Shown: piece by piece, positions 11,585 to 58,434 of the stretch
How positions within the stretch are numbered: position 1 is the first letter of the stretch
Layout: each line of letters starts with the position of its first letter
IMG/VR virus record: IMGVR_UViG_3300033074_000206
Span: 47,436 to 111,435 of that record
Origin: a virus
Lineage: Duplodnaviria > Caudoviricetes
Length of the DNA: 64,000 bases
Reading direction: 5' to 3' (one strand)
Made by a program: the position numbers and the translations under genes
The notes under the pieces: model-generated
The model's input: only the letters and a program-made list of their open reading frames with translations
Database searches by the model: none
What the model was told of the DNA's origin: nothing

Positions 11585-11605
11585 GTTATTTCCTTTTTAT
11601 TTTAT

Positions 11606-12646: not shown

Positions 12647-12658
12647 TTATTTTCTCCT

Positions 12659-13840: not shown

Positions 13841-13849
13841 TTTATCTCC

Positions 13850-14221: not shown

Positions 14222-14243
14222 AATTTCTCCTTTTTTATTATAT

Positions 14244-14429: not shown

Positions 14430-14489
14430 CTCACCCTCCTTTTTATTTTATTTATATAAAATAAAGTTAAAAAATATATAATAAAATAA

Positions 14490-14711: not shown

Positions 14712-14887
14712 AAGAAATAAAAGATATACTCTCGATATTTTGTATTAAACTAAGAAAGACTCGCGTAAACACTAAAGATAAGTACTAGACTTCATTCTAA
14801 TACATTCAAAGTGTAATTAAAATGCTTAAAAATAAATTTTTATTTTAACTTTAAGGTTTCTTTAAGGTTTGAATTCTAGACAATAAA

Positions 14888-14916
14888 AAAGCTCAAGAGA
14901 AATTTCTCTTGAGCTT
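14888..14916. terminator. Intrinsic terminator ending the baseplate operon
   Basis: AAAGCTCAAGAG..CTCTTGAGCTTT inverted repeat with A/T tails. Confidence 0.75.
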
Positions 14917-14938
14917 TAAAAACTTACGCATATACGTT

Positions 14939-15502: not shown

Positions 15503-15524
15503 TTTTCATTCCTTTTTATTTTAT

Positions 15525-16730
15525 TTATAATAACTCTATAGTAAATTCTTCTTGAATATTTACAACTTCATATTGTTCTGAATCATTCGTCAATACATCT
15601 GATAATACGATAGACTCGTCATTTATAAGCATACCATTCTTAAAAGTTTTTTCCTCTATGAAATCAGTTTGTTCGCTTACTAAATCACTTCTATACGTAT
15701 CACTTGCATTAGATGAATCTCTAAATGTCAATTCTTCGGATAATTTACTCGTATATATTTTCTCGTAATCGACATATATCGAACAATGATTTGAGTCCGG
15801 ATAAATTTTTAACAAATTGCTATTAGAATCGAAATATTTAACAACATCATTTTCTTGTAAGAGGTAGTTACCTGTTATGAACGTTATTTTTAAAATCCCA
15901 GATCCTTCCAATATATCTACCACCTCATCTGAATACACCTCGACATTACCAGATAAACATCTTACTTCTAGAGTATTTATTTTGTACGTCTCTGTTAAAG
16001 AATAATTATCAACAAAAGATGTTTCATTTATATACGTATATTCACATATAAACCCTAGAGGGTGACTTAAATATGCAACAGATTCGCGATAAACATCTTT
16101 ATCCAGAGATCCACTAATATTTAATTCAAAAGGATTTCCAGTTTCAGATATAGTTATATCTAATCGTTCGCTAGAATCTACTAGATATTCATTTAAAATA
16201 TCGTATATAAATTTAATACCCTTTTTCAATCCTTTAGATTCTTTAAATATCCTATTTACTCTATAATTTTCGGCTTTATTCTGTAATAAATTGCCTTCTA
16301 ATAATGACAATTTATCAGCAAATGCAGAAGCATTAAAATCTTCAACATCTTCAGAAGTATCCGACAAAACCCCTCCAGGTTCACCTATCGTGAAGTAATT
16401 TATATAGAGTGAATTACCTATATACGGCATCCCTGTTGGATATAAACTCGGATTTAGTAAAGAATTCCATACTTTGAATTTATTTACTATATTCTTGTCG
16501 GTTTTAAGATTCGCGATAAGTGAGTAATAGTCCCATAAATATATCTGTGGCAATTCTTCTGATATACTATCTGTTGTGTTTTCGGACAGACAGACTTTTA
16601 TATCGGAACTTATTGGCGACAACTCATTTAATAATTCTATGAATATCTGCGAACTATCCTCGATTATAGGTAAATTTTTTATATTATCCGGAGTAATAGC
16701 ATTAAATATTGATGAAAGATTATTCTGCAC
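15525..16730 (-). CDS. Putative baseplate wedge protein
   Basis: Follows gp6; SKG...I...L and HPLGF motifs typical of gp7/tail-P2-I-like proteins. Confidence 0.5.
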   Translation of the reverse strand: MQNNLSSIFNAITPDNIKNLPIIEDSSQIFIELLNELSPISSDIKVCLSENTTDSISEELPQIYLWDYYSLIANLKTDKNIVNKFKVWNSLLNPSLYPTGMPYIGNSLYINYFTIGEPGGVLSDTSEDVEDFNASAFADKLSLLEGNLLQNKAENYRVNRIFKESKGLKKGIKFIYDILNEYLVDSSERLDITISETGNPFELNISGSLDKDVYRESVAYLSHPLGFICEYTYINETSFVDNYSLTETYKINTLEVRCLSGNVEVYSDEVVDILEGSGILKITFITGNYLLQENDVVKYFDSNSNLLKIYPDSNHCSIYVDYEKIYTSKLSEELTFRDSSNASDTYRSDLVSEQTDFIEEKTFKNGMLINDESIVLSDVLTNDSEQYEVVNIQEEFTIELL

Positions 16731-16762
16731 ACTATCTCCTTTTTATTTTATTTATATAAATG

Positions 16763-18631
16763 TTAAATGAAATTAACTCGTTTTAATCTAGGTATAGTAT
16801 TTTTTGTTATCTGAATATTATCCGTTTTATATTTAACATTTAAAGTTTTTTGATCTATATTAGATTCAGTTATTGTTGTTCCGTCAATATTCAACTCAAC
16901 TAAAATATGTTTAGAGTTAAAAATTCTATATTTACCAACCACGGTAGAATTCAATTTAATATTCAGCTCTACTAAATCAGAATTCTTTTCTAATCCTGTT
17001 AGTGTACTCCAATCAACCGTTAGATTTTTTGTACCTATGAAAAGAGGAGTATCTATACTTGGCATATTCGCAGGAACCAAATTCCCTAGAGTGTCGTAAT
17101 AATCTTCGTACGGTAAACCCAATGGTAAAATATATTTATAATTTCCAACAGATTCCTTTATTATATTTTTATTATATAGAGTAATCGTATTTTTTAATGT
17201 TAAATTCAATCCAGTTATATCTGTTATCTGTGTATCAATTTGTTTTATTAAATTACTCTTAAAGAATTCTGTCTCAAAATCCTCGATATGTTTAGCTTCA
17301 TTTAAAAAGAAATAATTATTAATTATATCGAATATCGATTTGTTCTGCGCGCTCTCTGTACTCGTTATATCGTATTTTAAAATTTCTATATCGAATTCGA
17401 AATCTAATATCACAGGGTGTCGATGTATTAAAGCTAGAGTCGGTATTTTATATACTTCTAAATAATCAAATATTTCTGTTATTTCTGAATCTTCTAAGAA
17501 CCAATTAGACTCTGTTCCTAATAAATCTAATTGAAACGCTGTTTTAAATGCATCTGTTAAATATTTTCTTGTATATGTTCCTGGTAAAAAAGAGAACCAT
17601 ATTTTACCCGGAATCTTTGGATATTCTGCATTCCCATCCCATATATGAGATTTTGCAATCAAAGTCAATCGCTCACATATACTCTTATAGTCGTTTTTAG
17701 TAACGGCTCTATTAGCAGAATTCCAAAATAGAGGAGCATTCTGTTTTATACTCGTATCAGTTTCTTCTGATGTTCCTGCTATTTTTAGAGTTATTCCTGT
17801 AACGGTACAACCTAATTCGGTAGTAAATGTGTCGCCAGCAACTCCATCGGCACCAGAACTTTGTAGAACATTCATCTCGATTTTAGTTCCTAATCTTAAA
17901 TCATTACCAGTATTCGGCAATTTAAAATATATTCTAGGTGTTCCTGAATCTATATTATTTAATCTATAGAATTGTTTATTTAGAATAGTATCAGAGTCTA
18001 CGGTAAATGTTTCTATTTCCGTCCATACTTCTTTACTGGATAAGTTACCTTCATCATCATAATAAGTTAAAAAAGATTCAATACCAGAATCTTCTACATT
18101 AGTATATGGTATATCAACATAATATTGGTTTTTTGTAATACCATTCTCCACAAATGTTCCAATTGTAACAGATAATGCGTTATCCGTAGAGGATTTTATA
18201 AGTGTCCCTTCTTTCACAAGAATATTTAATTTTCGACCAGCAGTTGCACCAATAATCGTTATGATATCACCAAAATAATAATACGTATTCGAACCAGATT
18301 TAAATTCAGAATATTTTGGTAATATGAAGTCTCCTGATGGTAAAGTTAATTCCAATTGATATTGATAAGATATTTTATTTCCAGGTTCATAACCAAGTAA
18401 TCTGGCATCTTGTAATATATTTTTTCTTTTTCTCGCTAGAGTTAATAGATTTTCGTTTATATTTACAGCAGTATTCGTATTAAGCATACTTATTAGATAC
18501 GACATAGCACCAACAAGTTGCATAGTATTACTCCCTTCTTGAGTATCGTATCCAGCGGCTGCAAATTTAGCTTGTACTTTAGCGTATAAATCGTCGTAAT
18601 TAAACGGGATAGTCTCTTTTATTGTAGCCAT
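16763..18631 (-). CDS. gp6: Baseplate wedge subunit gp6
   Basis: EGSN...L; E..L..A..R..I...AR.LGY.P; IK.NAP....S.NRAVT..DY. Confidence 0.9.
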   Translation of the reverse strand: MATIKETIPFNYDDLYAKVQAKFAAAGYDTQEGSNTMQLVGAMSYLISMLNTNTAVNINENLLTLARKRKNILQDARLLGYEPGNKISYQYQLELTLPSGDFILPKYSEFKSGSNTYYYFGDIITIIGATAGRKLNILVKEGTLIKSSTDNALSVTIGTFVENGITKNQYYVDIPYTNVEDSGIESFLTYYDDEGNLSSKEVWTEIETFTVDSDTILNKQFYRLNNIDSGTPRIYFKLPNTGNDLRLGTKIEMNVLQSSGADGVAGDTFTTELGCTVTGITLKIAGTSEETDTSIKQNAPLFWNSANRAVTKNDYKSICERLTLIAKSHIWDGNAEYPKIPGKIWFSFLPGTYTRKYLTDAFKTAFQLDLLGTESNWFLEDSEITEIFDYLEVYKIPTLALIHRHPVILDFEFDIEILKYDITSTESAQNKSIFDIINNYFFLNEAKHIEDFETEFFKSNLIKQIDTQITDITGLNLTLKNTITLYNKNIIKESVGNYKYILPLGLPYEDYYDTLGNLVPANMPSIDTPLFIGTKNLTVDWSTLTGLEKNSDLVELNIKLNSTVVGKYRIFNSKHILVELNIDGTTITESNIDQKTLNVKYKTDNIQITKNTIPRLKRVNFI

Positions 18632-18660
18632 ATTTGTTCCTTTTTTTAATTATTTATATA

Positions 18661-19011
18661 TTAATTAACGATTGAAATGTTGGCACTTGCTTCTGTACTT
18701 TGCCCAAAATCATCTCGGAATTTATAGTTTATAGTAATTACTAATTTATTATATTCTTCTACTGATTTCAAGTCTATAGACGATATCGTGATTCTATCTT
18801 CGAATTCAGAAATAGCTGAAAAAATCATACTCTTAGCAACACTTTCGGTGAGCGAATCTAATTGACTAAAAATAAGAGTGTGTAAATTTGAACCAAATAG
18901 TGGATTACCAGGAACACTACCTTTACGCGTTAGTAAAATATTTCTCAGACTATTATTTATTGCTTTTATATCAGTATTATATTGTTCTATGCTACTATAA
19001 TCTTTATACAT
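18661..19011 (-). CDS. gp25: Baseplate wedge subunit gp25
   Basis: AI.NSLRNILLTRKG..P..P.FGS.L...F...I..FE.RI. Confidence 0.9.
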   Translation of the reverse strand: MYKDYSSIEQYNTDIKAINNSLRNILLTRKGSVPGNPLFGSNLHTLIFSQLDSLTESVAKSMIFSAISEFEDRITISSIDLKSVEEYNKLVITINYKFRDDFGQSTEASANISIVN

Positions 19012-19065
19012 TTTTACCTTCTTTTTATATTTATTTATATAATGTATCTTATATCGATTTATAAA

Positions 19066-19238
19066 AGAATCTAAAAGTAAATTTTTATTTTAAGTTTAAA
19101 CATATTTTAAGGTAACTAATTATTCTAATATCTATCGTATAAAGTTAAAAATAAATTTTTATTTTAAGTTTAAACATAGTTTAAGGTATATCGATTTATA
19201 AAAGAATCTAAAAATAAATTTTTATTTTAAGTTTAAGG
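19066..19238. repeat. Three copies of AAATAAATTTTTATTTTAAGTTTAA motif
   Basis: Copies near 19075, 19148 and 19211 in an intergenic gap. Confidence 0.75.
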
Positions 19239-19250
19239 CGTATTTAATAA

Positions 19251-19559
19251 TTAATTACAAAAAACGTTACCGCTACCAGACAAGATTACCCCAGCGTCGC
19301 AAGAATCACCTATTCTAGATACGCCTTTACCACCAACGAATACCGTGGCGCTGCAACTTTTTACTTTTTCGGTGTGAGGAACACAAGAATTACCAATTTT
19401 AATATTATGGACAACAGTATTATCGCCTAAACAAGACACTGGTAACCCCCCAATATAAACTTTAGCAGATAATCCGGTATTTGCACCAGACAATGTAGTA
19501 ACAGTATCACAAGCATGCCCTGTACTAACTGAATCGCTTTCTCTTGAAATTGCCGGCAT
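19251..19559 (-). CDS. gp5.4: PAAR-like spike tip protein (gp5.4)
   Basis: MPAISR..D...GH; S.TVFVGGK.V.RIGD..D.G...GS.NVF. Confidence 0.85.
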   Translation of the reverse strand: MPAISRESDSVSTGHACDTVTTLSGANTGLSAKVYIGGLPVSCLGDNTVVHNIKIGNSCVPHTEKVKSCSATVFVGGKGVSRIGDSCDAGVILSGSGNVFCN

Positions 19560-19569
19560 ATTTTCTCCT

Positions 19570-20079
19570 TTAGTATCTATTTTGGAAATAATTTTTAGTC
19601 CAATTACCTATATAAGATAAATTGTTAAGTACCTCGAGAGTGTACTCTATAATAATTTGAGATGTTTCGACAATATCTTCTTCTGGTGTTAATCCAATTG
19701 TTCTTTTTTCTACGGTTAAATTAATCGTTATCGGAATATATATAGATACCCGTGTATCCTGTTGAATCTTATACAATTCTTTGTGATCTGGCATAGAGTC
19801 TATGCCGCAAACTACCGGAGTTTGAGTTTTATCAGATTCACCCTTATCAACATAAGTTAGTTGATACTGATTAAAAACAGAAAGAGGTACATTACCAGTC
19901 AGTGTTACAGATGAACCGTTAAAGTTGTGATTTATATAATCGTCATATATATTATAGAGAACAACACAATTTAAAATTGTTTCAGTTACTGAACCACTTT
20001 CTAGAGTAAAACTACTAACGAAAGAAAAATTTGTATTAACTGGTGTGGTTCCTAATTTACCAATTGGAGTGTAAGTCAT
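19570..20079 (-). CDS. Baseplate-associated hypothetical protein (gp5.1 position)
   Basis: Located between gp5 and the PAAR gene. Confidence 0.5.
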   Translation of the reverse strand: MTYTPIGKLGTTPVNTNFSFVSSFTLESGSVTETILNCVVLYNIYDDYINHNFNGSSVTLTGNVPLSVFNQYQLTYVDKGESDKTQTPVVCGIDSMPDHKELYKIQQDTRVSIYIPITINLTVEKRTIGLTPEEDIVETSQIIIEYTLEVLNNLSYIGNWTKNYFQNRY

Positions 20080-20099
20080 AATTATTCCTTTTTAAAAAT

Positions 20100-20630
20100 T
20101 TAATTAAGATCTATTCTAGCAGCTTCGACTTTAAAATTACCATCAGCTTTTATATTATAATTCCCGGTAACATTATGTGTCATATTGGCAACAGATTCAA
20201 TTAATATACTACCATCAGGTTGGAATGTTATTTTAGAACCACTCGAGTGTTTTATCTCTATTTTTTCAGAACCACCAGCATCGCCTAATTCTATTATGTG
20301 CCCGCTAGCAGTTTTAATTGTTTGCGTATTAGAGTAAGAACCCTTTGCTTCCGAACTAATATCCGAAGCTCCTTTAACGACAGCAAAAACAACAGGAAAA
20401 TTATAATCGTCGTTATTAAAGAATACCCAAACAACTGTACCTATTCTTAGAACAGATGTTACACCCACACCATTAGATAAACCGAAATCTGTTCCCCCTG
20501 ATACTTCAGCCCATGGTAGAGCACTGGCACTCACAGCAGAACCATCGTCATGAATGCCAAAAACTCGTACTTGAACTCTACCGTATTTTTCAGGATCTAT
20601 ATTATTTTCAACAACAGCTCTATAAAACAT
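20100..20630 (-). CDS. gp5: Baseplate central spike gp5 (OB-fold plus beta-helix, no lysozyme domain)
   Basis: VVE...DP...GRVQVRVFGIH; LPWA; T.SGH.IE..D..G.E.I...H.SGS; A.RIDLN. Confidence 0.88.
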   Translation of the reverse strand: MFYRAVVENNIDPEKYGRVQVRVFGIHDDGSAVSASALPWAEVSGGTDFGLSNGVGVTSVLRIGTVVWVFFNNDDYNFPVVFAVVKGASDISSEAKGSYSNTQTIKTASGHIIELGDAGGSEKIEIKHSSGSKITFQPDGSILIESVANMTHNVTGNYNIKADGNFKVEAARIDLN

Positions 20631-46102: not shown

Positions 46103-49100
46103 TTAACTCCATGCTTTTATTGATACATACCCAGCAACAACAGTAGCACCTGCAGTAGATACTCTAGCTCTTGCAAACGTAGCAGATAGTCCATTCACAG
46201 TTAACTGCACTGTACTTGACGCCACAGCAGTTAGTGGTGTTCCGAGTGCATACCAGTTAGTTCCATCCTCTGATCCTTCTAACTGCAATACTGGAGCAGT
46301 AGTAGCTGTACCAATATTTACTACCAATTGTATATTGTTTGCTGCACCTGAAAACAATGTTGGAGTAGTACTATTTAAAGTAGTCAATACGATACTTCTA
46401 TCCATTAATCTTTTTTGCGGTTCTGCTGGAATAGATGGAAGTATATTTCTAATTACTGCATTAGTAAATGATGGACTAGTTCCAGTAATAGTTCTTACAT
46501 ACCTTATGTGTCTACCACTTGCTCTAAGAATTGGAGTATTATACGAACCCATCGCAGTAATTCTTTGCATCTCATACAATGTTACCCAGTTTGTTGCACC
46601 ATCAAACGATTCTTCTATTCTAACATCCATTGTCGGAGTAGTCCCAGATACAGCTGTAACAGCAATATTTACTTGGAATCCGTTACCTAGATTATTTGCA
46701 ATCGCAGCACTTGTAGAAGTACTAGTTAACGCAGCACTTGCTACATCTAAAATCCCTGTAACCGCTGGGTGTGTATACCATCCACCTAAACCAGTAGTTG
46801 CTGATATTGTTGCAGGACTACCTTGGTAAACACCTGATGAACCACCAACTACGTACATAGGAATAGCCTTAGTTACATCCGCAGTACCTTGCCCATCAAT
46901 TTGTACCATACTTTGTTTATATGTATACCCAATAATATCGTGACTTCTTAATGTAGTTCTCAGAATCACAGTTCCACCACAAGCTGTTGTAGTAATAACA
47001 TTCGTACTATTTGGAGCTAGATACGTCCCAGTATAATCTTGTACAGGCTTAGCTAACATTGTAGTACCTGATAAGTTCATAATCTCATAAACACCATCTA
47101 AACCTAAGTCAGTACCAGTATTTGAAATCAACCCATGAATATTTACATATTCACCAACAGCAGCAGGTGCACCCCATGTACCATTTCCTACAAACGTATA
47201 GATACCATCTGCATTTCTTGCAACTGATTGAACAACCTGTGATACAACCCCTTGTTGATCCACACCACCACAGTTAGTTAATACTACAGTACCTCCATAA
47301 CTAGTAGCTGTTGCTGCAGAACCATGTACAATCGTAAACCGTGTATCATTTACTACAGTCACAGCAGTTGGAGTTGTAATTCCAGCAAAGTTAGTTTGAT
47401 CTAACACACCTTTAATCGTCACAAATTGACCAGTAGCTAATCCATGAGGAGCAATTGTATTAACAGTAGTTGTAGTTGTACCAGCTTTACTAATACTTGC
47501 AATTCTTGCAATTGGTCTACTCATTGACTTTGGAGATACAACTCTAAACCTAACACCGTATGTCTCACTAAAGTCAGGTTTAACACCAGATCTATATGTT
47601 CTTGCACTTGCAACAGTCGATGCATCTACAGATAAATCGTAGAACAGAATACTTTGAGGCTCACTTTTTACCCAGAACTTCGTAGAAGCTTTTACATCAT
47701 AATGACCATTAGATTGATACGCAAACACTGGAGCAGTAGATAAGCATGCTGACATATGTGAAGTATTTAACACACCAGACACTTGCGCCTCATATCCACC
47801 AAACTTACTGATATATGCACATGCTCCAGCTGATGTACTTGAGAATCTCATACCATATCCAGCTGTAGCAGCACCTAATTGAGGTCTATACGTTACAGTT
47901 CCTTGTGAGAACGGTCCAACAGATATTGATGGAATAGCAAGATCATCAGCATATGTACATATAATAGTTTTTCCATCTGCACTTATTGTATTAATACACA
48001 GATTCGAATAGTTCAATCTATTATCACTAGTCACACCACTAACATCGATCCAGTCACCAATATTTAAGCCAACTCCACCAGCTCCACCAATATTAACTGC
48101 AGTAGCAAACGTAATCGTTAGCGTTGTAGTAACTTGTTGAATTGTTGCAATCGGATAACTAGCAACAGTTGGAGCTACACCTAGTGAATCACTATTAACA
48201 ACATCCATTACTGCGAATTGTCCTCTTACCCTTTGAGACATTGATGCCTCTAATCCTAATACATGTGGTATACCTAATGCCTTTGGAAGATTCTGTAAGT
48301 AGATACTAGATTCATGATTATCAACAAGTGGATTCATCGATAACGCAGTTACTAATTGCCCATTAGATGTAGGCTTAACTATCAATGCATCCCCACCATT
48401 TAAGTTAACATTGTAGTACGTTGCAAGCGTAGCAGGTGTTATATCTGGGATAACCTGAATCATATCTCCAAACTGCCCTACCTGAACTGGATTTGCTCTC
48501 AACTGATTATCTGTTAACCCACCAGTAACAACTACAGGAGTAGCTCTTAATTGCGCATCAGTCAATCCTCCTGTTGTTACAGAACCAGTTACTGTTAATG
48601 GGTTACCTGAATCGTTTTTAACTTCAATCTCATTTGAAACTGAAACAGTTCCAGATATAGGTATAGGATTTCCTGAATCATTCGCAATCTCGATTGAACC
48701 GTTCGTTACGGTAACGTTAACCGCACTAGCTCTTAATTGTGTGTCCGTTAACCCAGTTCCTGCTCCAGCTAATGTCAAATTTGATGAACTTGGCGTTCCA
48801 CTTAAATCTACTCCAGTACTTTGATTTCTCCAAATAGCTGTAATAGTTGTCGGCGTATTTGTTACATCTATAACTTGCGTACAAGTTATAGTATCGCCAA
48901 CACTTGCTCCCATGAAAGCAGTTTTACAAGTGTACGTAGTAACAACAAGTTCTCTATCAGCTGTTGCTCCTCCTGAACCTCCCGAACCAACTGCTGGAAT
49001 ACCAGATGTTACGGCTAATTCTCCATCAGTCACAGAACACTTAAAGTAAACTTTGTTTTCGCCATAAGAACTAATATCAACTTGTTCCCTGTACGATAAA

Positions 49101-49237
49101 ATATGAAATTTATCGCCTGTAGATGGAGCGCTATCGCCTATAAAATACTCGACTGTCGCGTTGGTTCTATTAGTTACTATATCACCGCTAACTAATGTCC
49201 AAATATTTTTTTGTAACGTTTGTATTGTTGTTGTCAT
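46103..49237 (-). CDS. Large T/S/G/V-rich virion protein (fibre or spike-like), 1044 aa
   Basis: Late promoter; beta-rich composition; GLTD.QLRA x3 and EI.NDSGNP x2 repeats; duplicated C-terminal EES.DG.NW / EGSEDG.NW domains. Confidence 0.65.
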   Translation of the reverse strand: MTTTIQTLQKNIWTLVSGDIVTNRTNATVEYFIGDSAPSTGDKFHILSYREQVDISSYGENKVYFKCSVTDGELAVTSGIPAVGSGGSGGATADRELVVTTYTCKTAFMGASVGDTITCTQVIDVTNTPTTITAIWRNQSTGVDLSGTPSSSNLTLAGAGTGLTDTQLRASAVNVTVTNGSIEIANDSGNPIPISGTVSVSNEIEVKNDSGNPLTVTGSVTTGGLTDAQLRATPVVVTGGLTDNQLRANPVQVGQFGDMIQVIPDITPATLATYYNVNLNGGDALIVKPTSNGQLVTALSMNPLVDNHESSIYLQNLPKALGIPHVLGLEASMSQRVRGQFAVMDVVNSDSLGVAPTVASYPIATIQQVTTTLTITFATAVNIGGAGGVGLNIGDWIDVSGVTSDNRLNYSNLCINTISADGKTIICTYADDLAIPSISVGPFSQGTVTYRPQLGAATAGYGMRFSSTSAGACAYISKFGGYEAQVSGVLNTSHMSACLSTAPVFAYQSNGHYDVKASTKFWVKSEPQSILFYDLSVDASTVASARTYRSGVKPDFSETYGVRFRVVSPKSMSRPIARIASISKAGTTTTTVNTIAPHGLATGQFVTIKGVLDQTNFAGITTPTAVTVVNDTRFTIVHGSAATATSYGGTVVLTNCGGVDQQGVVSQVVQSVARNADGIYTFVGNGTWGAPAAVGEYVNIHGLISNTGTDLGLDGVYEIMNLSGTTMLAKPVQDYTGTYLAPNSTNVITTTACGGTVILRTTLRSHDIIGYTYKQSMVQIDGQGTADVTKAIPMYVVGGSSGVYQGSPATISATTGLGGWYTHPAVTGILDVASAALTSTSTSAAIANNLGNGFQVNIAVTAVSGTTPTMDVRIEESFDGATNWVTLYEMQRITAMGSYNTPILRASGRHIRYVRTITGTSPSFTNAVIRNILPSIPAEPQKRLMDRSIVLTTLNSTTPTLFSGAANNIQLVVNIGTATTAPVLQLEGSEDGTNWYALGTPLTAVASSTVQLTVNGLSATFARARVSTAGATVVAGYVSIKAWS

Positions 49238-49421: not shown

Positions 49422-52400
49422 TTATGCTCCGCCGATTACTTCGGAAAATGCCCGAGTTCCTGCATTTGTGAATTTCAAATGAATGAATTCCATTTATATT
49501 CATATAGATTCGTTAATTCTATACCGAGCTTTGAGCTCTGCTCCGAATTTCTCCAGAGATTGGACTATATCTTCATCTTTAGATTTCTCTACTAAGATGT
49601 CTACCATTTTGAGACGACTACGTCTCTACTCCCCGTTACAGGATAGTCTCTGAACTTTACTCTTGTCGAGTCTTAGCTGCTGATTTTCTTGCTTTTAATT
49701 TCTTAAAAGTTTAGATTTTCCAGACAATTAGATAGATTATAATTATATATTTCTATATAATGCGCCAAATTAATAATTATTAATATCGTATAGCAACGTA
49801 GGTCGGACGGATGAACACCATTTATATTCATATAGATTCGTTAATTCTATACCGAGCTTCGAACTCTGCTCTGAATTTCTCCAGAGATTAGACTATATCT
49901 TCATCTTATTGATTTAAGATGCAAACCATTTCCTTTTGACTTCAAAAGTACTCCTCTATGAGGATAGTCGTTGAACATTTTTCTCTTTAGAGAAACTTTG
50001 ATGCTGATTATCATTTTAGATTGAATCTAAATTAGACTTTCCAGACAATTAGATTTGTTTAATGTGAACTTTGTTAAATCCACTACTAGTTGATTCCTGC
50101 TTATCACGTCAGGGGTGTTATTAGATTCATCACAGCATTTATATTCATATAGATTCGTTAATTCTATACCGAGCTTTTAACTCTGCTCATAATTTCTTAT
50201 GAGATTGGACTATATCTTTATCCGCTTTGGATAGTTCCTATTTCCATCTACATAGATGTACTCCTCCACGAGGATAGTCTCTGAACTTTGTATTCTATGA
50301 ATACCTTAGCTGCTGATTGTCATTTTAGATTGAAATCTAAATTAGACGTTCCAGACAATTAAAGAACTTTAAATATCGATGTTACCACCGATAGGTGACT
50401 AGCAATTAATCACCATGAAGTCTTGTATACCTCTTCCTGCCTGTACAGACGAAAGGAATGGCTTAACCATACTGATAATTCTATTCATTTATATTCATAT
50501 AGATTCGTTACTTCTATATCGGGCGCTACACCCAGCTCATAATTTCTTACGAGATCAGACTATATCTTATTCTTATACTCTTGTGTATAAGAATCTCTCC
50601 ATTTCGAATCACTTGATTCTACGTACAATGTACTAGTCGTTGAACTTTGTATTCTGACGAATACCTTAGCTGCTGATTGATATATTCTACAATTAGAACT
50701 TAATTATTCCAGACAATTAGAAGAGTTTTCTGTTTATATTGATATAAACAGGCGCAAAATTTTACGCGTAAAATTATCATTAAACTCCATCACTTGATAC
50801 TTCATTTATATTCATTTAAGTTCGTTATTCTTAAATCGAGATTTAACTCTGCTTTATATTTCTATAAAGATTAGACCATATCTTCATCTTAAAAATTTTG
50901 GTTCCATTAAGATGCTCTCTATTTCGAGTTCACTTGAACTCTACGAACTTTCGTTCTGGTCGTTGAATCTTTTTCGCAATGCGAAACTTGACTGCTGATT
51001 ATCATTTTAGATTAGATCTAAATTAGACGTTCCAGACAATTAAAAGAGTTTTTGATGACCAATATTTCAGCCATCTTAGCTAATGCTCTTTCTAGGGTAT
51101 TGCTTACTATATTTAATTAAATTCGTTACATTTAATTGGAGAATATCTCCCTCTGAATTTCTCCAGAGATTGGACTATATCTTAATTATTTCTATAAGAA
51201 ATAATCTGCACCGCTTCGGAAATACTTATTTCCTACTCTACTAGTAATATACGTTCGATAGTCTCTGAACTTTGTTCTTTTATAGAACCTTAGCTGCTTA
51301 TTGATATATCTTAAATTCGATTTAAGACTTAATTATTCAAGACAATTCAATGCATTTTATGGTCTTTCCAATTTTAACCAAAAAGACCTCTAACATTTCA
51401 TATGCATTCGTTCTAATTCGTTAGATTAGAACCGAGCTTTTAACTCTGCTTAATGTTTTCATTAAGATTAGACTATATCTTATTCTTATTCTTATATAAG
51501 AACCAAACCATTTCCACTCACTTGAGTGTACTCACATTACGTGATAGTCGTTGAACTTTTCTATTTCTAGACTTAGCTGCTGATTATCATTTTAGAATCT
51601 TGATCTAAATTAGACGTTCCAGACAATTAGATTTGTTTATCCAGAGCCAATGTTTTAATAAACTCTGTCAACATATTTTATTTAGTATAATCCGCTATTT
51701 TATACCTGGAATTTACCACTCATAATTTCTTATGAGATTAGACTATATCATACATTTTTAACAAGTTGTAAAAAGTTGTAAAAATGTTGCACCGTTTCGA
51801 GATAGCTTTATCTCTACTCCCTCTCGGGATAGTCGTTGAATCTTTTTCTCTATGAGAAACTTGACTGCTGATTGTCGTTTTAGATTGAAATCTAAATTAG
51901 ACGTTCCAGACAATTAGATGCATTTATAGTTCGCGTGACGAATGTTCACGAACTCGCTTTATCTAACAATGTTTTTTGCCCCCAAAGAACTGTCGATTAT
52001 ATTCATTCTAATTCGTTAGATTAGAATCGAGCTTTTAACTCTGCTCTTTATTTCTAAAGAGTCTAGACTATATCTTCATCTTATCAATTTAAGATGCAAA
52101 CCATTTCGATATTACTCAATATCTACGTGCAGAGCACTAGTCGTTGAACTTTTCTATTTCTAGACTTAGCTGCTGATTATCATTTTAGAATCTTGATCTA
52201 AATTAGACGTTCCAGACAATTAGATTTGTTTATTCAGAGCTACATTTAACCCTGACCTGGGAAACTTCATTTATATTCATATAGATTCGTTAATTCTATA
52301 CCGAGCTCGGAGCTCTGCTTTATATTTCTATAAAGATTAGACCATATCTTTATCCTCTAAGGATAGTTCCTATTTCGATATTACTCAATATCTACGTGCA

Positions 52401-55400
52401 GAGCACTGGTCGTTGAATCTTTTTCTCTTAGAGAAACTTGACTGCTTATTGGCGTATTATAGCTCTGCTATAATTTAGCTATCCAAGACAATTAAAGAAC
52501 TTTTTCATTTTATATCTCTATAAAAGGTTGCAATTTTATTTCACAACTGGGTTAATCCCGTTTTTGTATAAGAAATCTCTCCATTATATTCATTCTAATT
52601 CGTTAGATTAGAATCGAGCTTGGAGCTCCGCTCATAATTTCTTATGAGATTGGACTATATCTTCATCTTTAGATTTCTCTATTAAGATGTCTACCATTTC
52701 CACTCACTCGAGTGTACTCCTCCACGAGGATAGTCTCTGAACTTTGTATTCTATGAATACCTTAGCTGCTGATTGATATATTCTTATCATTAAGAACTTA
52801 ATTATTCCAGACAATTAGATAGATACATAATTTATATTTCTATAAACTTCAACTTAAGATTTTTAAATTGACTGTGTCGGATTAAACGCAAGTTTAATAC
52901 AATTTTTGATTTGTCCTCTTTCAAGCATTTTATTCATATAGACTCGTTAATTCTATACCGATCTTATTCTGCTTTATATTTCTATAAAGATTAGACTATC
53001 TCTTATTCCTATATCGACATATAAGAACCTCTCCATTTCGATATCACTCGATATCTACGTGCTACGCACTAGTCGTTGAATCTTTTTCTCGTAATGAGAA
53101 ACTTGACTGCTGATTTGCATATTATATCATCGTTTTATCTAATATAATTTAGCTGTTCCAGACAATTAAAAGAGTTTATAGCAAGCCATAGATTTAACCT
53201 GCTGAGGCCCACCATGATGCTCTATCAGACGACGTTTGAGATCTCAGCCCCGCACAATCCCCTGCAAGATTCACCCAACGGTTTTTATCGTTGTATCTCG
53301 TTTTATTCAGTATAAATCGCAACATTATACCCAAAATTTTAGTTGATAACTCTAAAATTGCTATATATTTCTATATAGACTAGACTATATCTTTACCCTT
53401 CTTATTTTTGCCTTTAGTTAGGGTAGTCACCATTTCGAGTATCATTAGCTTATACTCTACTCCCTCTCAGGATAGTCGTTGAACCTTGTTTTATAAATTA
53501 GTTTAGACTCATCTCGGAGTATATTATTTATTAAGCTATTTTTGCATACCAACCAATCAAATGTAGAAATCCGTATTTATTAGCCATTATTTTACCATTA
53601 ATAGTCTGATATAACTTTGTATTATTTTCGAAAGACCTTCTTAATGCCGTATTAGGTAAATTATATTTGTTGCAAAAATCTATAAAGGAACCTTCGCATA
53701 TATAACTCAATTCATCTTTATAATTATATATTAATATAGTTTTTGTACTGTAATGATTTTTACCATTATTTTTCAATTTATACTCTTCTGTAGCCTTTGT
53801 TATTTTTTGTTTTTTAGCTCCATTTAATAGTGGTTCTTTATGTTTCAATTTATACTCTTCTGTACTTATAGTAATTAGTCTTTTTGTAGTTGCTTCTATT
53901 CTACTGATTTTGTTTTTTAATATTGATTTTTCTGAATATCTCGATTCTTTCCAGTTTTTAATAGCTTCTAATGTTTGCATACCTTTATTACCGTCCTTTC
54001 CATTCTCGGCAATTAAATTAGCCCAATCAGTAGATTCGACTATATTGTTTTCTTCAGAAAATTTCAAAGCAATTGGTTCTACGTAATCTTCATCAGAAAC
54101 ATTTAACGAAAATATACCATATATCTCCATGGTAACTTCATCGCCATGTTTTTGTAAATGTTTCTTCCAATAAACTCCACTTCCATGATAATACTTTTGT
54201 AAATCTTCTACTGTAAAATGTTTAGAAGTTTTACCAAAATATTTCTTTCCTGTTATATTATGTGTAGCAATATATAATGTAACCTTATCTTTCATTCTCG
54301 CTCCTCCGTATAAAAGAACGAAAGGCAAATAACGTTCTTTTATTATATTTATAAAACCTTGGCTGCTGATTGTCCAATCTCAATCTTATTTATCATTTCT
54401 TTTTAAGAAACTATAATTGAGCTCTAAGGATATTCCAGCAATTAAATGACTGTTCGAAAGAAATTTCTTTCTTAAGCGACTTTTCTAAAATCGTATTGAT
54501 ATTTGTAGTTTCCAATCGCACAACAGAACATACTATTAAAATTTAAAGAACCAGTAGTTCTCCAAGTAATAAGAGATTGAACAGCGTCGCTTGATTTTTT
54601 ACCAACCGTGTCAGAGTACTTCGCTCCAATAAAAGCGATCACGTCTTCCCTTGAATCTGCAAGTTCCTTTGCACTTGCACCAGAATCTAATTCGTTACCG
54701 ATTACGGTGTCAATCATTTATATTCATTTTAATTCGTTAGATTAAAATCGAGCTTCGAACTCTGCTTAATGTTTCCATTAAGATTAGACTATATCTTCAT
54801 CTTAAATTAATAAGATGCTCTCCATTTCGATATGACTTCATATCTACGTGCTGCGCACTAGTCGTTGAACTTTGTTCTGTTATAGAACCTTAGCTGCTTA
54901 TTAGCATATTATAGTAGAGCTATAATTTAGCTATCCAAGACAATTAAAAGAGTTTTCATTTTAGAATTACTTCTAAAAGCGACAAATTCCATCGATTTCT
55001 TCTTTATTCATAAATACGTCATAAGCATTTAGTAAATCATCTGCTTGAATATCAGAATCTCTTCCAATAACAAGTTTAATTGTACCAGCATTCGAGAAGA
55101 TATAAGATTTTATAGCTTCAGTAATATCCGTATTGTCTTTAATAAAGATATAAGAACTCCCGTTATTAATAACTGTTTCGATATAAGTACTTTTATTGTT
55201 AATATCTTTAGCCGTAGCATTAAAATCAACAGTAAAAACTTCTTTTATTTCGTCTTCGTATTTAATGATGATACCAACTTGAGTTCCTGTAGGTTTATAT
55301 TCAAATAAATCATCTAAAGAAACACCGTCAAACGCTTTTTTAGAGTTACCGAAATCTCCCGGAACAGCTATTGCTATTTCAAGTTTTTCGGACCATCTAC

Positions 55401-58152
55401 CCGGATTCTTAGCAATTATCTTAATTTTAGAATCAGCATGAGAGAAAGCAATTGAAGTTTCTTTTGTTTCGTAATCATCTGCATTTTCTACAACTAAATA
55501 ATTACCGTAGTACTTATCTGCTGAGATAGAAGCAACTGAACTAGATTTAAGAGCTTCAAAAGTTCCATTTATGTGAGCTTTATAAGAGTTTACTGCTGTT
55601 CCTGTCGTAAAGGCTGTTTCGATATTTCTATCAAGAACAAGTGTAGTATTTGTAGTTGTTGTAACCGTCTTTACGTAATAAAAATTAAGCGTGTCTGTTC
55701 CAAAACTAATTAAATCGCCAACTGCAATTTTTGTAGTGTTAGACACAACTGCAGTAGCAGTACTATTTGCAGTAATTGCTGTTGTTACAGTAACACCTGG
55801 GATAGCTGTGTGTGTTCCACCAGTATTCGCTGCTCTTGAAATAAGTAATTTATTTGAATAACTTAAATAGTTATACGTTTGGTCGATTATATTCATTCTA
55901 ATTCGTTAGATTAGAATCGAGCTTTTAACTCTGCTCTTTATTTCTAAAGAGTCTAGACTATATCTTCATCTTTAGATTGCTCTATTAAGATGTCTACCAT
56001 TTCCACTTACTTAAGTGTACTCCTCTATGAGGATAGTCGTTGAAGTTTAATAATTAAAATAAAGTCGGTATAATTCTTCTACATCTAAAGAATTATTTCT
56101 CCCTTTCTTAGCGTTTTCTTCCCAAGGAATCAATGCTAAATTGTGTTTGCTTGATATCATTTGATACGGTATATTTTGTTTAAATCCATTAAAAATAGAA
56201 AATTTGTGATCTAATTCGTATGAGTCTGGATGAATACGGCTTTTTCTAAGTCCAAAATCTATATTCATTTTTCTATATTCCTTTTCAGTTTCCCTACAAA
56301 CTAAAAATTTATATAATTCGTAATCATTCTTAGATGATAATGGCATCCATATATTCGCAGCTTCTTTAGATAATCTAATCTGATTTTGAAATTCAGCACT
56401 CTTAAAGATACAATCGACACCATACTTCGAAAGATTAGTTTGTTTAGATTTATTTATTATCTCTGGAACTTGAAATGTATACGCAACACCATATTTTTCA
56501 ATCATACTAGGAATATATACAGTATTCATGAAATCGCTAGATTTCATATGATGGTCAACGCCAAAATTGACTATACGAGTTTCCTTTATTTTGTTCTTAA
56601 ACTCGTTATATTGAAATGGGTTAGAAACATTATATCTTTCAAGACAAGTTGATTCTCTTTTTTGCGCAAAAATCTCAGTTCTTTGAAAAATATCGCCATA
56701 TTTTTCAATACAAGTTGATTGTATTTTATCATTTATATTAGAATAATCCGTATTAAGAACTTTCTTAGTTTTTATTTCATCATTTTTCATCGGATGATCA
56801 ACACCGTATTTGATTATATTTGTGACTTTAGATTTCTCTCTAGCTTTTATACCGCCTTGATGTTGTCGACATTTTTTACAATGAGTATTATATCCTTTAT
56901 TAAACGATATATAATTAGTTTCTGATAGACAATATTCGCACAATTTACAACCGTAAAATATATCGTATATCTCTTTAGAAGAAAAAGATATATTATTTAA
57001 ATAATTAGTATCAATACTACCGCTATCCAATAAAATATACTTTTTATATTTCAATAAATCTTCTATATTATCTATATTAAACGATTGTTTTATTTTATTC
57101 GAATACCCTCTATTGAATGATAGAAATTTTATATTTTTATAAAATTCTTTATCTATTTCGAAAATATCATCATATAACTCTTGATAACTTTCGTAGTTTA
57201 ATTTCTTTTTTATAGATTGTTTATTTATTCCGTTATAATATAATTCTTTAGCTTTACACATTTTATTTTAATTATCCTTACCTGCTGATTTTCGTATTTT
57301 ATAATCTATTTATAAAACTTAGACGTTCCAGACAATTAGATAGATTTCTAATATATTATTTCTAATATATATTGGCATTTTCACCAATCATTGTAGTTCT
57401 CATTAGATGGTTTTCCGTAATACGTAATTAATTCATCAACTGAAGTGATTATTTGATATTTATTAACAGGTCCTTGGTGGAAATTTCCACTAAATACTGC
57501 AACTGAATTAGATACTGTCGGTACGATTTGACTCGCGTCGCATTTATATTCATATAGATTCGTTACTTCTATACCGATCTTATTCTGCTCTTTATTTCTA
57601 AAGAGATTAGACTATATCTTATTCTTATATTCTTTTATATAAGAATCTCTCCATTTCGAGATAACTTTATCTCTACGAGCATATGCTCTAGTCGTTGAAC
57701 TTTGTATTCTATGAATACCTTAGCTGCTGATTTTCATTTTAGAATCTTGATCTAAATTAGACGTTCCAGACAATTAGAAGAGTTTTACTTTTTATATCAC
57801 TATAAAAGGAGACCTACTGATCTCTGTAATGAAACTTTTTGTTCATTCTAATTCGTTAGACTAGAACCGATCTTATTCTGCTCCAGATTTCTCTAGAGAA
57901 CGGACTATATCTTAATCTCCTCGGAGATTTGAACCATTTCGAGATAACTTTATCTCTACTCCCAAAGGGATAGTCTCTGAACTTTACTCTATTTTAGAGT
58001 CTTAGCTGCTGATTGATATATTAAAATATATATTCTTTATAATAAGAAATATATTAAACTTAATTATTCCAGACAATTAGATTCATTTATTACTCCGATA
58101 TCGCTAAAGGAGAGTGCAATCATTCCACACCTGGACTTAACATTTCTGCCAT
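49422..58152 (-). CDS. gp18: Tail sheath protein (T4 gp18-like), 637 aa after splicing, split into 18 exons by 17 group I introns. Exons 5'->3': 58152-58127, 57834-57820, 57540-57383, 55883-54991, 54714-54490, 53298-53197, 52925-52867, 52581-52543, 52267-52249, 51993-51948, 51671-51662, 51398-51381, 51102-51069, 50802-50764, 50485-50409, 50135-50078, 49818-49792, 49490-49422
   Basis: Joined exons total 1914 nt in one open frame: MAEMLSPGVFITEIDASQIVPTVSNSVAVFSGNFHQGPVNKYQIITSVDELITYYGKPSNENYNDWYQTYNYLSYSNKLLISRA...KEEIDIDTVIGNE...GNYKYQYDRYNDKNRWVNLAGDCAGLRSQTSSDRASWWASAGLERGQIKNCIKLAFNPTQSMRDFLYKNGINPVVSFPGQGTVLWGQKTLLDKASSFDRVNVRGLFNTLERALAKMAKYQVMEFNDNFTRNRIISMVKPFLSSVQAGRGIQDFMVICDESNNTPDVISRNQLVVDVFIRPTYVAEFIHLKFTNAGTRAFSEVIGGA*. 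Motifs match T4 gp18 (LSPGV, YKYQYD.YND..RWV, FDR.NVR.LF, CD..NNTP.VI.RN). AAGGA RBS precedes the ATG. Track ORFs 54973..55896 and 54472..54717 are exons 4 and 5. Confidence 0.96.
49491..49791 (-). mobile_element. Group I intron 17 (301 nt)
   Basis: P1 TGCT/GGCG with a longer AT-rich loop; conserved core; junction TYVA|EFIH. Confidence 0.9.
49819..50077 (-). mobile_element. Group I intron 16 (259 nt)
   Basis: P1 GTGGAT/GTTCAC; junction LVVD|VFIRP. Confidence 0.92.
50136..50408 (-). mobile_element. Group I intron 15 (273 nt)
   Basis: P1 GGTGAT/GTCACC; junction FMVI|CDES. Confidence 0.92.
50486..50763 (-). mobile_element. Group I intron 14 (278 nt)
   Basis: P1 GCGT/GCGC; junction NFTR|NRII. 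Confidence 0.92.
50803..51068 (-). mobile_element. Group I intron 13 (266 nt)
   Basis: P1 GATGGCT/GGTCATC; junction AKMA|KYQV. Confidence 0.92.
51103..51380 (-). mobile_element. Group I intron 12 (278 nt)
   Basis: P1 GGTCTTTT/GAAAGACC; junction RGLF|NTLE. Confidence 0.92.
51399..51661 (-). mobile_element. Group I intron 11 (263 nt)
   Basis: P1 CAGAGT/GCTCTG; P10 AACATT pairs with 3' exon AATGTT; junction FDRV|NVRG. Confidence 0.92.
51672..51947 (-). mobile_element. Group I intron 10 (276 nt)
   Basis: P1 AGTTCGT/GCGAACT; followed by a 10-nt exon. Confidence 0.92.
51994..52248 (-). mobile_element. Group I intron 9 (255 nt)
   Basis: P1 TCAGGGT/GCTCTGA; junction PGQG|TVLWG. Confidence 0.92.
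52268..52542 (-). mobile_element. Group I intron 8 (275 nt)
   Basis: P1 GTTGT/GCAAC; junction INPVV|SFPG. Confidence 0.92.
52582..52866 (-). mobile_element. Group I intron 7 (285 nt)
   Basis: P1 TCAAT/GTTGA; splicing creates AT|G (QSMRD). Confidence 0.92.
52926..53196 (-). mobile_element. Group I intron 6 (271 nt)
   Basis: P1 GCAGGT/GCTTGC; conserved core; junction ASAG|LERG. Confidence 0.92.
53299..54489 (-). mobile_element. Group I intron 5 (1191 nt) with GIY-YIG ORF; the most divergent intron of the set
   Basis: P1 CGAT/GTCG; P element AATTGCTGGAA rather than AATTGTCTGGAA; ORF between Q and R; junction YQYD|RYND. Confidence 0.92.
53531..54295 (-). CDS. Intron-encoded GIY-YIG homing endonuclease
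   Basis: LYIATHNITGKKYFGKT...YHGSG...ANL motif; start moved to MKDKV (54295) because GGAGGAG RBS lies just upstream. Confidence 0.8.
   Translation of the reverse strand: MKDKVTLYIATHNITGKKYFGKTSKHFTVEDLQKYYHGSGVYWKKHLQKHGDEVTMEIYGIFSLNVSDEDYVEPIALKFSEENNIVESTDWANLIAENGKDGNKGMQTLEAIKNWKESRYSEKSILKNKISRIEATTKRLITISTEEYKLKHKEPLLNGAKKQKITKATEEYKLKNNGKNHYSTKTILIYNYKDELSYICEGSFIDFCNKYNLPNTALRRSFENNTKLYQTINGKIMANKYGFLHLIGWYAKIA
54715..54990 (-). mobile_element. Group I intron 4 (276 nt)
   Basis: P1 CGAT/GTCG; conserved core; junction KEEID|IDTVIG. Confidence 0.92.
56047..57261 (-). CDS. Intron-encoded putative HNH homing endonuclease (404 aa)
   Basis: CxxC...CxxC zinc motifs, repeated T..EKYGV modules, C-terminal ELDHKFS...NL...EN..K HNH-like motif. 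Confidence 0.75.
   Translation of the reverse strand: MCKAKELYYNGINKQSIKKKLNYESYQELYDDIFEIDKEFYKNIKFLSFNRGYSNKIKQSFNIDNIEDLLKYKKYILLDSGSIDTNYLNNISFSSKEIYDIFYGCKLCEYCLSETNYISFNKGYNTHCKKCRQHQGGIKAREKSKVTNIIKYGVDHPMKNDEIKTKKVLNTDYSNINDKIQSTCIEKYGDIFQRTEIFAQKRESTCLERYNVSNPFQYNEFKNKIKETRIVNFGVDHHMKSSDFMNTVYIPSMIEKYGVAYTFQVPEIINKSKQTNLSKYGVDCIFKSAEFQNQIRLSKEAANIWMPLSSKNDYELYKFLVCRETEKEYRKMNIDFGLRKSRIHPDSYELDHKFSIFNGFKQNIPYQMISSKHNLALIPWEENAKKGRNNSLDVEELYRLYFNY
57307..57314 (-). promoter_or_regulatory. Late promoter TATAAATA inside intron 3, upstream of the HNH ORF
   Basis: Exact octamer about 45 nt before the ATG at 57261, with AAGGA RBS between. Confidence 0.55.
57541..57819 (-). mobile_element. 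Group I intron 2 (279 nt)
   Basis: P1 GAGAT/GTCTC; same P/Q/R/S core; ends ...ATATAAATG. Confidence 0.92.
57835..58126 (-). mobile_element. Group I intron 1 of sheath gene (292 nt, no ORF)
   Basis: Exon ends GGTGT and pairs with intron GCAC (P1, U.G). Core P AATTGTCTGGAA, Q AATCAGCAGC, R TTCAGAGACTA, S AAGATATAGTCC. Ends in G. Confidence 0.92.
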
Positions 58153-58434
58153 TTTATATTCCTTTTTATAGCTTACTTTCTGTTTAATAACTTCCACTGA
58201 AAATTATCTCAGAAAAACATTGCAATTTATGATAAAGTTGGAATCTTTATCTAGAATAAGACACGAAGTCTTAAACTCTGCTTTAGTTCTTTTATTTTAA
58301 AAAAGTTTAGCTAAAATTTTTAAGATTAGTTTAGACTCATTTCGGAGTTGATTATCTTAAATTTAAAGAATTAGAATGCGATTTGTATATCCTAATCAAT
58401 TAGTTTATAGACGTTTCGGTCTGAAGATTAAAAT

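Follow-up and report, generated by a model that had tools for sequence, protein, structure and literature searches.

The window analysed here, a stretch of 64,000 nucleotides (nt), forms the right-hand 64 kb of a virus contig in IMG/VR (record IMGVR_UViG_3300033074_000206) that is 111 kb long and has a G + C content of about 30%. It carries a T4-type portal gene and, on the minus strand at 58152-49422, the gp18-type tail sheath gene of an uncultured T4-like phage, in which 17 group I introns were found (I1 to I17 in gene order); together they make up 78% of the gene by length. Comparison with the Rfam model RF00028 placed 15 of the 17 above the gathering score of 50, at 61.7-91.2 bits, and I3 (36.8 bits) and I5 (36.6 bits) fell below it because they are split by open reading frames (ORFs). 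With the same model, no group I intron was found outside the sheath gene in the rest of the 111-kb contig. The original prediction, made from the letters of the DNA, had introns extending over 49491-58126, and these ends coincide precisely with where I17 stops and I1 begins.

Three rules were used to assign the splice junctions: U as the last exon base, G as the last intron base, and a product colinear with the uninterrupted sheath of Vibrio phage Va1 (locus L001 in our numbering of related sheath loci). The resulting model (Table 1) comprises 18 exons, with lengths from 10 to 893 nt, and 17 introns, with lengths from 255 to 1499 nt; the final U is present in all 17 5′ exons and the final G in all 17 introns. 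When joined, the exons (1914 nt in total) form a frame of 637 amino acids (aa) with no stop and no frameshift, which aligns with the Va1 sheath from end to end; it also aligns with metagenomic homologues that have no introns, to which it is 64-69% identical. In tblastn searches, annotated tail sheath genes were matched by exon 4. Alternative splice sites for I11 and I12, which differ by one codon, were dropped by colinearity with Va1 and with the related locus L016, leaving exon 11 at 10 nt and the 3′ site of I12 after the G four bases further on. The 3′ splice site of I12 was thus set by colinearity with Va1, and the 5′ splice site of I17 by colinearity with Va1 and L003.

Only I3 and I5 carry an ORF. 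The ORF of I3 matches DUF7487 and homing endonuclease families of PHROG; the 265-aa ORF of I5 gave no Pfam or PHROG match, and its N-terminus can be read as GIY-YIG-like.

Table 1. Exons and introns of the tail sheath gene in gene order, with the helix formed by each exon end and the intron guide (P1)
Feature	Position	Strand	Length (nt)	P1 (exon/guide)	Guide position	Remarks
Exon 1	58152-58127	-				splice model
I1	57835-58126	-	292	GGUGU/GCACU	58117-58113	
Exon 2	57834-57820	-				splice model
I2	57541-57819	-	279	GAGAU/GUCUC	57813-57809	
Exon 3	57540-57383	-				splice model
I3	55884-57382	-	1499	AUUGGU/GCCAAU	57376-57371	ORF 56047-57261
Exon 4	55883-54991	-				splice model
I4	54715-54990	-	276	CGAU/GUCG	54983-54980	
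Exon 5	54714-54490	-				splice model
I5	53299-54489	-	1191	CGAU/GUCG	54480-54477	265-aa ORF 53531-54328
Exon 6	53298-53197	-				splice model
I6	52926-53196	-	271	AGCAGGU/GCUUGCU	53186-53180	
Exon 7	52925-52867	-				splice model
I7	52582-52866	-	285	UCAAU/GUUGA	52853-52849	
Exon 8	52581-52543	-				splice model
I8	52268-52542	-	275	GUUGU/GCAAC	52531-52527	
Exon 9	52267-52249	-				splice model
I9	51994-52248	-	255	UCAGGGU/GCUCUGA	52240-52234	
Exon 10	51993-51948	-				splice model
I10	51672-51947	-	276	AGUUCGU/GCGAACU	51934-51928	
Exon 11	51671-51662	-				splice model
I11	51399-51661	-	263	CAGAGU/GCUCUG	51647-51642	after 10-nt exon
Exon 12	51398-51381	-				splice model
I12	51103-51380	-	278	GGUCUUUU/GAAAGACC	51368-51361	4-bp P10
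Exon 13	51102-51069	-				splice model
I13	50803-51068	-	266	GAUGGCU/GGUCAUC	51060-51054	
Exon 14	50802-50764	-				splice model
I14	50486-50763	-	278	GCGU/GCGC	50755-50752	
Exon 15	50485-50409	-				splice model
I15	50136-50408	-	273	GGUGAU/GUCACC	50399-50394	
Exon 16	50135-50078	-				splice model
I16	49819-50077	-	259	GUGGAU/GUUCAC	50069-50064	
Exon 17	49818-49792	-				splice model
I17	49491-49791	-	301	UGCU/GGCG	49766-49763	weak P1; 5-bp P10
Exon 18	49490-49422	-				splice model

That the guide of a group I intron matches its insertion site is textbook biology. P1 was measured here as the longest helix without gaps in which the final U of the exon is paired with a G within the first 40 nt of the intron. 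In every one of the 17 introns the U at the exon end was found to pair with a G that opens a guide of 4-8 nt, located 7-26 nt into the intron. With the U.G pair counted, the contiguous P1 measured 4-8 base pairs (bp) in the cognate combinations, with a mean of 5.65 bp, against a mean of 2.97 bp in the 272 swapped pairs; 0 of 100,000 permutations reached the observed sum (p<1e-5), so that P1 pairing is better than with shuffled exon/intron pairs, the control named in the original prediction. With the guide position fixed, the mean duplex energy was -5.94 kcal/mol for cognate and -2.12 kcal/mol for swapped pairs, and the total was reached in 0 of 200,000 permutations (p<5e-6). Ten of the 17 guides rank their own exon first, and four introns (I4, I5, I14 and I17) are weak, with a P1 of only 4 bp. 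The claim that each intron has its own guide matched to its insertion site, with U.G at the splice site, is thereby borne out throughout the gene, and the five exon/guide pairs that had been quoted for it were all found, in I12, I10, I13, I15 and I9.

Pairing of the intron with the 3′ exon (P10) was marginal, with a mean of 2.0 versus 1.43 bp (p ~0.04), and lies in A/U-rich loops, and P10 was for that reason dropped as a general feature of these introns. It is notable only in I12, I17 and I7 (the last of 4 bp, with an offset). P10 had been proposed for introns 1, 10, 11 and 12; it was recovered in I12, and the other three have 1-2 bp. Each intron would thus choose its 5′ splice site through P1, formed by 4-8 exon bases ending in U and a guide starting with G, and the 3′ splice site would be set chiefly by the terminal G, with little contribution from P10.

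At the four phase-0 exon ends (I4, I9, I14 and I17), the third codon position is frequently C or A in homologues without introns (GAC, GGC, AGA, GCA), and the window has U there, as required for the U.G pair. Either the wobble positions of the exons are tied to the presence of the intron, or they were co-converted with it.

The ribozyme cores had been described as near-identical, which proved incorrect. Pairwise identity is 53-82% (mean 67%, over 248 core columns), 64 of 255 columns are invariant, and the cores differ mostly by compensatory helix changes. The common fold of the 15 ORF-less introns, calculated with RNAalifold, contains 62 pairs, 50 of which show pair-keeping changes on both sides. 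The long-range helix P3 occurs in seven sequence versions, yet is paired at 6/6 positions within each of the 17 introns. In gene order the P3 types are A B C B D B C E F G F G B B E F C, and I13 and I14 are the only neighbours of like type. Selection for incompatible P3 helices in neighbouring introns, by which hybrid ribozymes and exon skipping would be avoided, was considered and rejected: about 2.2 of the 16 pairs of neighbours would be expected to be fully compatible and 1 is, a difference that is not significant (p 0.14-0.33). An insertion of 32 nt between the 5′ strand of P7 and the 3′ strand of P3 forms two co-varying hairpins, P7.1 and P7.2; because of these two extra hairpins the family was grouped with the T4-like IA-type introns (IA2), an assignment made by inspection and without a subgroup-specific model.

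About 60 sheath loci were gathered by scanning IMG/VR and metagenome contigs with exon 4, and the introns of each locus were counted with an nhmmer profile built from the alignment of the window's introns. Insertion sites are named s1, s2 and so on after I1, I2 and their successors. A search of the phage collection for near-identical DNA gave a single match of 35 nt and nothing useful. Most sheath loci, including those of Va1 and of Campylobacter phages, are without introns of this family, and several have one, nearly always at s1. The numbers of introns among the relatives are 0, 1-2, 5, at least 9 and at least 11, with five in L003 and L004, at least five on the fragment that carries L018, and at least 11 in L016. 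Locus L015 is almost identical to L016 over their common stretch, but is without the s2 intron. The sheath gene of L073 (IMGVR_UViG_3300026484_000248, 9231-20364) is a distant one, with 28-59% identity by segment; it is spread over more than 11 kb and contains at least nine introns of the same family, some at sites common to the clade of the window (after NYNDW and after RWV) and others at new sites.

Twelve of the 17 insertion sites in the window, those of I1-I6, I8, I10, I11, I13, I15 and I16, are occupied at the identical nucleotide in at least one relative, being filled in some relatives and empty in others. The sites of I7, I9, I12, I14 and I17 were not found occupied in any of the roughly 60 loci. 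Relatives add at least 11 further sites, giving a total of at least 28 positions for the family in sheath genes. Unrelated contigs, too, have one or two introns of this core pattern, in capsid-like genes among others. In L016, the introns at s2, s8 and s10 have the same site and guide as I2, I8 and I10, with an ORF in the s2 intron and another in the P1 loop of the s10 intron, and the ORF-less intron at s5 has the guide GUUGUAC. In L003, the s15 intron has the site and guide of I15, another intron lies at the site of I13, and s6 reads GCAGGU/GCCUGU. An ORF-bearing intron is also present at s10 in L051, with its guide not located. In general, the introns of relatives that bear an endonuclease gene or other ORF lie at s1, s2, s3, s10 and several new sites.

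Comparison of occupancy and guides across related sheath genes, a check put forward with the original prediction, showed that guides shift with their exons at s1, s4 and s16. Site s1 is occupied in L017, L018, L019, L022, L028, L029 and L051, and across phages the exon reads GG-U/C/A-GU with the guide GC-A/G/U-CU to match (GGCGU with GCGCU, for example). At s4, GGAU/GUCC in L018 stands against CGAU/GUCG in the window, the C-to-G change in the exon being matched by G-to-C in the guide. At s16, L003 has exon GUAGAU with guide GUCUAC, in which a synonymous G-to-A change of the exon is matched by C-to-U in the guide. This co-variation is independent evidence that P1 is under selection. Over eight contigs, 39 of the 40 introns with defined ends have a P1 of 4-9 bp; the exception, at site sFPG of L016, has 3 contiguous bp and an uncertain 3′ end. 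Because the spliced frame is intact, the changes in the core are compensatory and guide and exon co-vary in other phages, the view that these introns would be under selection to splice is supported, as had been predicted.

Trees were constructed from the 5′ and 3′ halves of the core (87 and 161 columns). The comparison of intron phylogeny with position had also been suggested as a check, and it did not favour descent by site: the cores group by genome, introns were not grouped by site in either tree, and the two halves were mutually discordant. I10 is the only intron with a supported same-site partner (3′ half), and for I11 the same-site intron is merely the nearest 3′ half by identity. Several well-supported groups each come from a single genome, namely I9+I11, I4+I6+I8, I2+I15, I16+I17, L003 s13+s15 and L018 s4+s369. 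A different result was obtained with the first 45 nt, which comprise the P1 loop, the guide and P2. This head ranks the same-site intron of another phage first at 5 of the 12 shared sites (I1, I2, I8, I11 and I15), whereas the 5′ core half never does so, ranking it 4th to 41st of 45, with the best partner usually found in the same genome. The head of I11 and that of the same-site intron in L016 give an alignment score of 39 (maximum 45), the best of all compared. Exact shared tracts of 96 nt (I9/I11), 89 nt (I3/I9) and 63 nt (I7/I15) were found inside introns that are otherwise 55-80% identical.

The simplest reading of these data is that the guide-bearing heads follow the site and the ribozyme cores, which are mosaics, follow the genome. 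Since the cores are mosaic, the likeness of the 17 cores is no evidence that one ribozyme was recently copied 17 times, and core similarity within the gene is probably due in large part to exchange between copies, no less than to a recent retargeting. For T4, Bryk and Belfort reportedly described in 1990 that different introns recombine with one another between conserved elements of the core. The original prediction had one ribozyme repeatedly retargeted to new sites. Retargeting must have happened, because one family occupies at least 28 sites in sheath genes, but the similarity of the cores does not serve as a clock for recent retargeting.

We therefore favour an explanation with 17 splicing introns, site-anchored heads, recombining bodies and a pool of site-specific introns, and give it as a whole a probability of about 70%, a joint figure under which all 17 introns must leave one pre-mRNA to yield the tail sheath protein. 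The head would be anchored to its site, inherited or homed with it, and kept complementary to the exon by selection. The catalytic modules (P3, P5, P6, P7.1, P7.2, P8 and P9) would recombine or gene-convert among the copies in the same genome, with the crossovers in conserved segments of the core, and this exchange of modules would produce mosaics that are alike within one phage. Most of the introns would have been gathered by homing and recombination from a population-wide pool of site-specific introns, and most probably arrived in this way at sites that already existed. It had been argued that ordinary homing cannot explain the series. This holds for the origin of each site, which alone needs retargeting, but not for the majority of the introns, which homing and recombination can bring, since 12 of the 17 sites are shared and several are found with endonuclease genes. 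New sites would arise rarely, when a copy lands after a U whose preceding bases fit the incoming guide; most targets share a G-purine-U core, and the guide would be refined later.

Several points weigh against this explanation. Splicing, its order and its efficiency are matters that we infer from sequence, and the relatives are metagenomic contigs. The trees rest on few columns and contain many unsupported forks, and head orthology is clear at only 5 of the 12 shared sites. Orthologous heads on paralogous cores could also come from the introns of each phage independently hitting the same favoured sites, which is disfavoured because of the head similarity at s2, s8 and s11. The introns of relatives at s5 and s6 carry a different core type, and for this reason some sites were probably colonised more than once. 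The G-purine-U bias of the targets may reflect a functional need of the ribozyme and not inheritance. In the L016 intron at 9058-9358, the exon ends at KYQV and the next starts at ICDES, with 34 conserved codons missing (exons 14-15 of the window); this gap is probably an assembly collapse between similar introns or a recombinational deletion.

The sequences of the sites and guides were examined for traces of how new sites arise. G was found at position -3 in 18 of 26 sites, compared with 23% among U-ending positions, and a purine at -2 in 23 of 26. The sharing of 3-mers among targets was significant (p ~3e-4), also with a null matched for G + C; likeness beyond three bases was rejected, as shared 4-mers and 5-mers among the 26 targets were not significant. 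Intron sites lie in conserved sequence (identity 0.72 versus 0.62, p=0.004). The clearest candidate for a young retargeting appears to be I9. Its site is unique to the window, and it bears the guide and 5′ body of I11, the 96-nt exact tract running from the guide onward; the head of I11 is also found in L016. The guide of I9 and I11 fits only three positions in the 1914-nt mRNA, of which these two introns occupy two, and their targets are unlike in a single base, a difference absorbed by a G.U pair. Target and guide are also shared by I4 and I5, by I15 and L018 s369 (GUGAU/GUCAC), and by I2 and L003 sMRD (GAGAU/GUCUC). The extended guide of I14 (50752-50758) forms 7 bp with the exon end at s1 (58127-58133), in the window and in four relatives, and 4 bp at its own site; the probability of such a fit by chance is about 0.05, uncorrected, and the guide of I14 may be a leftover from a donor site. 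Overall, guides fit other intron sites 10 times against 4.6 expected, and for guides of at least 5 nt the numbers are 3 against 1.4, which is not significant.

One route to new sites would operate on DNA: an endonuclease, intron-borne or free-standing, breaks the gene, short-homology repair copies an intron into the break, and only copies whose guide fits survive. Homing endonuclease genes abound in this genome and its relatives and are located within introns at many sites; the exact shared tracts show that introns exchange DNA; T4-like phages recombine at high rates; and the conserved sequence around the intron sites is as expected for endonuclease targets. In the L016 intron at 4697-4946 (s447, the RWV|N site), the first 10 nt of the intron are a 9/10 copy of the first 10 nt of the 3′ exon, which looks like a target-site duplication. 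Against this route, 15 of the 17 introns in the window are without an ORF, and the duplication is present in 1 of 40 introns only; the route is hypothetical for group I introns and is termed inefficient in a review (PMC3984707). Taken together, the DNA route is possible, at less than even odds, and we place it somewhat above reverse splicing as the origin of new sites. Target-site duplication was dropped as a general signature, since s447 of L016 is the only one of the 40 introns to show it, and no other combination of an intron start with a 3′ exon that was compared scored 9. The guide of that intron begins at the last bases of the copy.

Rather more tentatively, guide-directed transposition may still be active in this phage lineage, I9 having been seeded by a copy of I11, I14 keeping the guide of an s1 intron, and the G-purine-U core sufficing until the guide is refined. 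If true, this would be the first protein-coding system in which the successive steps of retargeting group I introns to new sites can be traced, and they would be testable in a phage.

Reverse splicing had been suggested in the original prediction as a route to new sites, and no specific support for it was found. It would have produced a recent burst within the sheath gene, with excised intron RNA inserted into the mRNA, followed by DNA copying, recombination and adaptation of the guide. The confinement of related introns to a single gene of the 111-kb contig, in which they occupy many sites, would be expected of such a burst, as would the common guide of I9 and I11 with targets one G.U-tolerated change apart, the guides and targets common to I4/I5, I15/L018 s369 and I2/L003 sMRD, the better fit of the I14 guide to the s1 exon, and the excess of fits to other intron sites. 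However, this excess is not significant for guides of at least 5 nt, nor are the shared 4- and 5-mers, and targets would be equally alike after insertion by any route, once selection for splicing had acted on an essential gene. A reverse transcriptase domain (PF00078) was not found in the 111-kb contig, whose completeness is about 58%, and the enzyme might be supplied by the host. Furthermore, 12 of the 17 sites are older than this genome because relatives share them, and according to the review cited above there is no direct evidence for the pathway in any system (PMC3984707). A recent burst by reverse splicing is thus unlikely.

An assembly artefact, in which a graph path joined introns of different strains so that no real genome has all 17, is very unlikely. 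The contig is derived from a metagenome, relatives vary in intron content, and L016 seems to have collapsed between two introns. In opposition to this, exons of 10-46 nt between neighbouring introns are shorter than a read, and therefore I1-I2 and the chain from I8 to I14 are linked pairwise on real molecules; the 637-aa frame is perfect, and L016 independently has its many introns. An artefact cannot produce matching guide/exon pairs, and the finding itself would stand. That the gene is a decaying pseudogene overrun by selfish introns which no longer all splice, as the four introns with a 4-bp P1 might suggest, is highly improbable in view of the joined exons without stop or frameshift, the U.G pair, terminal G and 6/6 P3 kept in all 17 introns, the compensatory changes throughout the core, and the lack of a second full gp18-type sheath gene in the window.

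The introns resemble those of td, nrdB and nrdD (sunY) of phage T4 in their T4-like host phage, the IA core with P7.1/P7.2, the ORFs in peripheral loops and the homing endonucleases. In T4 there is one intron per gene, in genes of nucleotide metabolism, whereas the sheath introns are many copies in one late structural gene and are mostly ORF-less. The cox1 gene of fungal mitochondria can contain up to about 18 group I introns, of several subgroups, mostly with LAGLIDADG ORFs and often maturase-dependent. It is comparable to the sheath gene in the number of introns in one protein gene and in their clustering in conserved regions, and differs in that the sheath introns are one family, small, ORF-less and in a virus. 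Group I ribozymes engineered for trans-splicing, with the guide swapped, were reportedly made by Sullenger and Cech in 1994. There, as in the sheath gene, one catalytic body is aimed at new sites via a few guide bases after a U; unlike such laboratory designs, the sheath series is natural and would be maintained by selection. Tandem introns have also been engineered from group I introns (PMC10136302).

For the group I introns in the ribosomal DNA (rDNA) of fungi and lichens, spread by reverse splicing has been proposed (PMC1299323) and is regarded as unproven in a review (PMC3984707). They share with the sheath introns the occurrence of related introns at many heterologous sites of one conserved gene (PMC1299323), and short guide/target complementarity is the proposed determinant of their new sites (PMC1299323, PMC3984707). 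The sheath gene differs from these eukaryotic nuclear rRNA genes in being a protein-coding gene of a virulent-type phage, in which a non-splicing insertion would be lethal, and in having a reading frame that independently checks every junction. According to the same 2014 review, there is no direct evidence for any pathway to new sites, and rDNA is the best circumstantial case (PMC3984707). A 2025 survey of introns in Bastillevirinae reported nothing comparable (PMC11878797).

[quoted passage not shown] As far as the parts of these sources available to us go, both genes have several ORF-less IA2-type introns in one phage gene, a very short exon between introns, and splice-site pairings proper to each intron. 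The sheath gene differs from Twort orf142 by its number of introns, by micro-exons down to 10 nt, and by a family with at least 28 sites for which guide/exon co-variation and exchange of core modules were read from population data. Exon skipping has been shown for Twort.

What is new is the scale of 17 introns in one gene, the late structural gene of a T4-like phage as their location, and the combination of site-anchored guides with recombining bodies. To our knowledge, also within the literature searched, a count of 17 in a single phage gene greatly exceeds that of Twort orf142, which is three. For the long-standing question of how new sites come to be occupied by group I introns, the sheath family provides a dense natural series, with at least 28 sites in one essential protein gene, 0 to 17 introns among relatives, junctions that can be checked by the reading frame, and guides seen changing with synonymous changes of the exon. 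That head and catalytic body would evolve as separate units matters for intron phylogenies and for the design of retargeted ribozymes. The micro-exons of 10-19 nt between similar ribozymes raise the question of how exon skipping and hybrid ribozymes are avoided.

Some further features of the ORF-bearing introns were observed. In the s10 and s3 introns of relatives (L016:7242-8710, L018:347-1706 and L051 at about 7620), the P1 loop contains an ORF of about 1.1 kb, which separates the guide from the 5′ splice site and places it more than 1 kb from its exon; a shared purine-rich ribosome-binding motif precedes the ORF. A short hairpin with a TAAACTA-like tail was found at three places: behind the ORF of I5 (window 53498-53520), in the leader of the sheath gene (58326-58348), and just upstream of the guide in the ORF-bearing s10 intron of L016 (about 8425-8450). 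It may mark the 3′ end of an endonuclease cassette.

In the L016 intron at 6637-6933, a colinear start of the 3′ exon at CAAGG makes the last intron base A and not G, and the nearest G breaks the frame; an additional A/T hairpin is present at the 3′ end of this intron. Downstream of its sheath gene, the window has an ORF of 1044 aa (46103-49237) with no clear family. In L003, a second sheath-like gene (15924-17378), 25% identical, lies just downstream of the split sheath gene.

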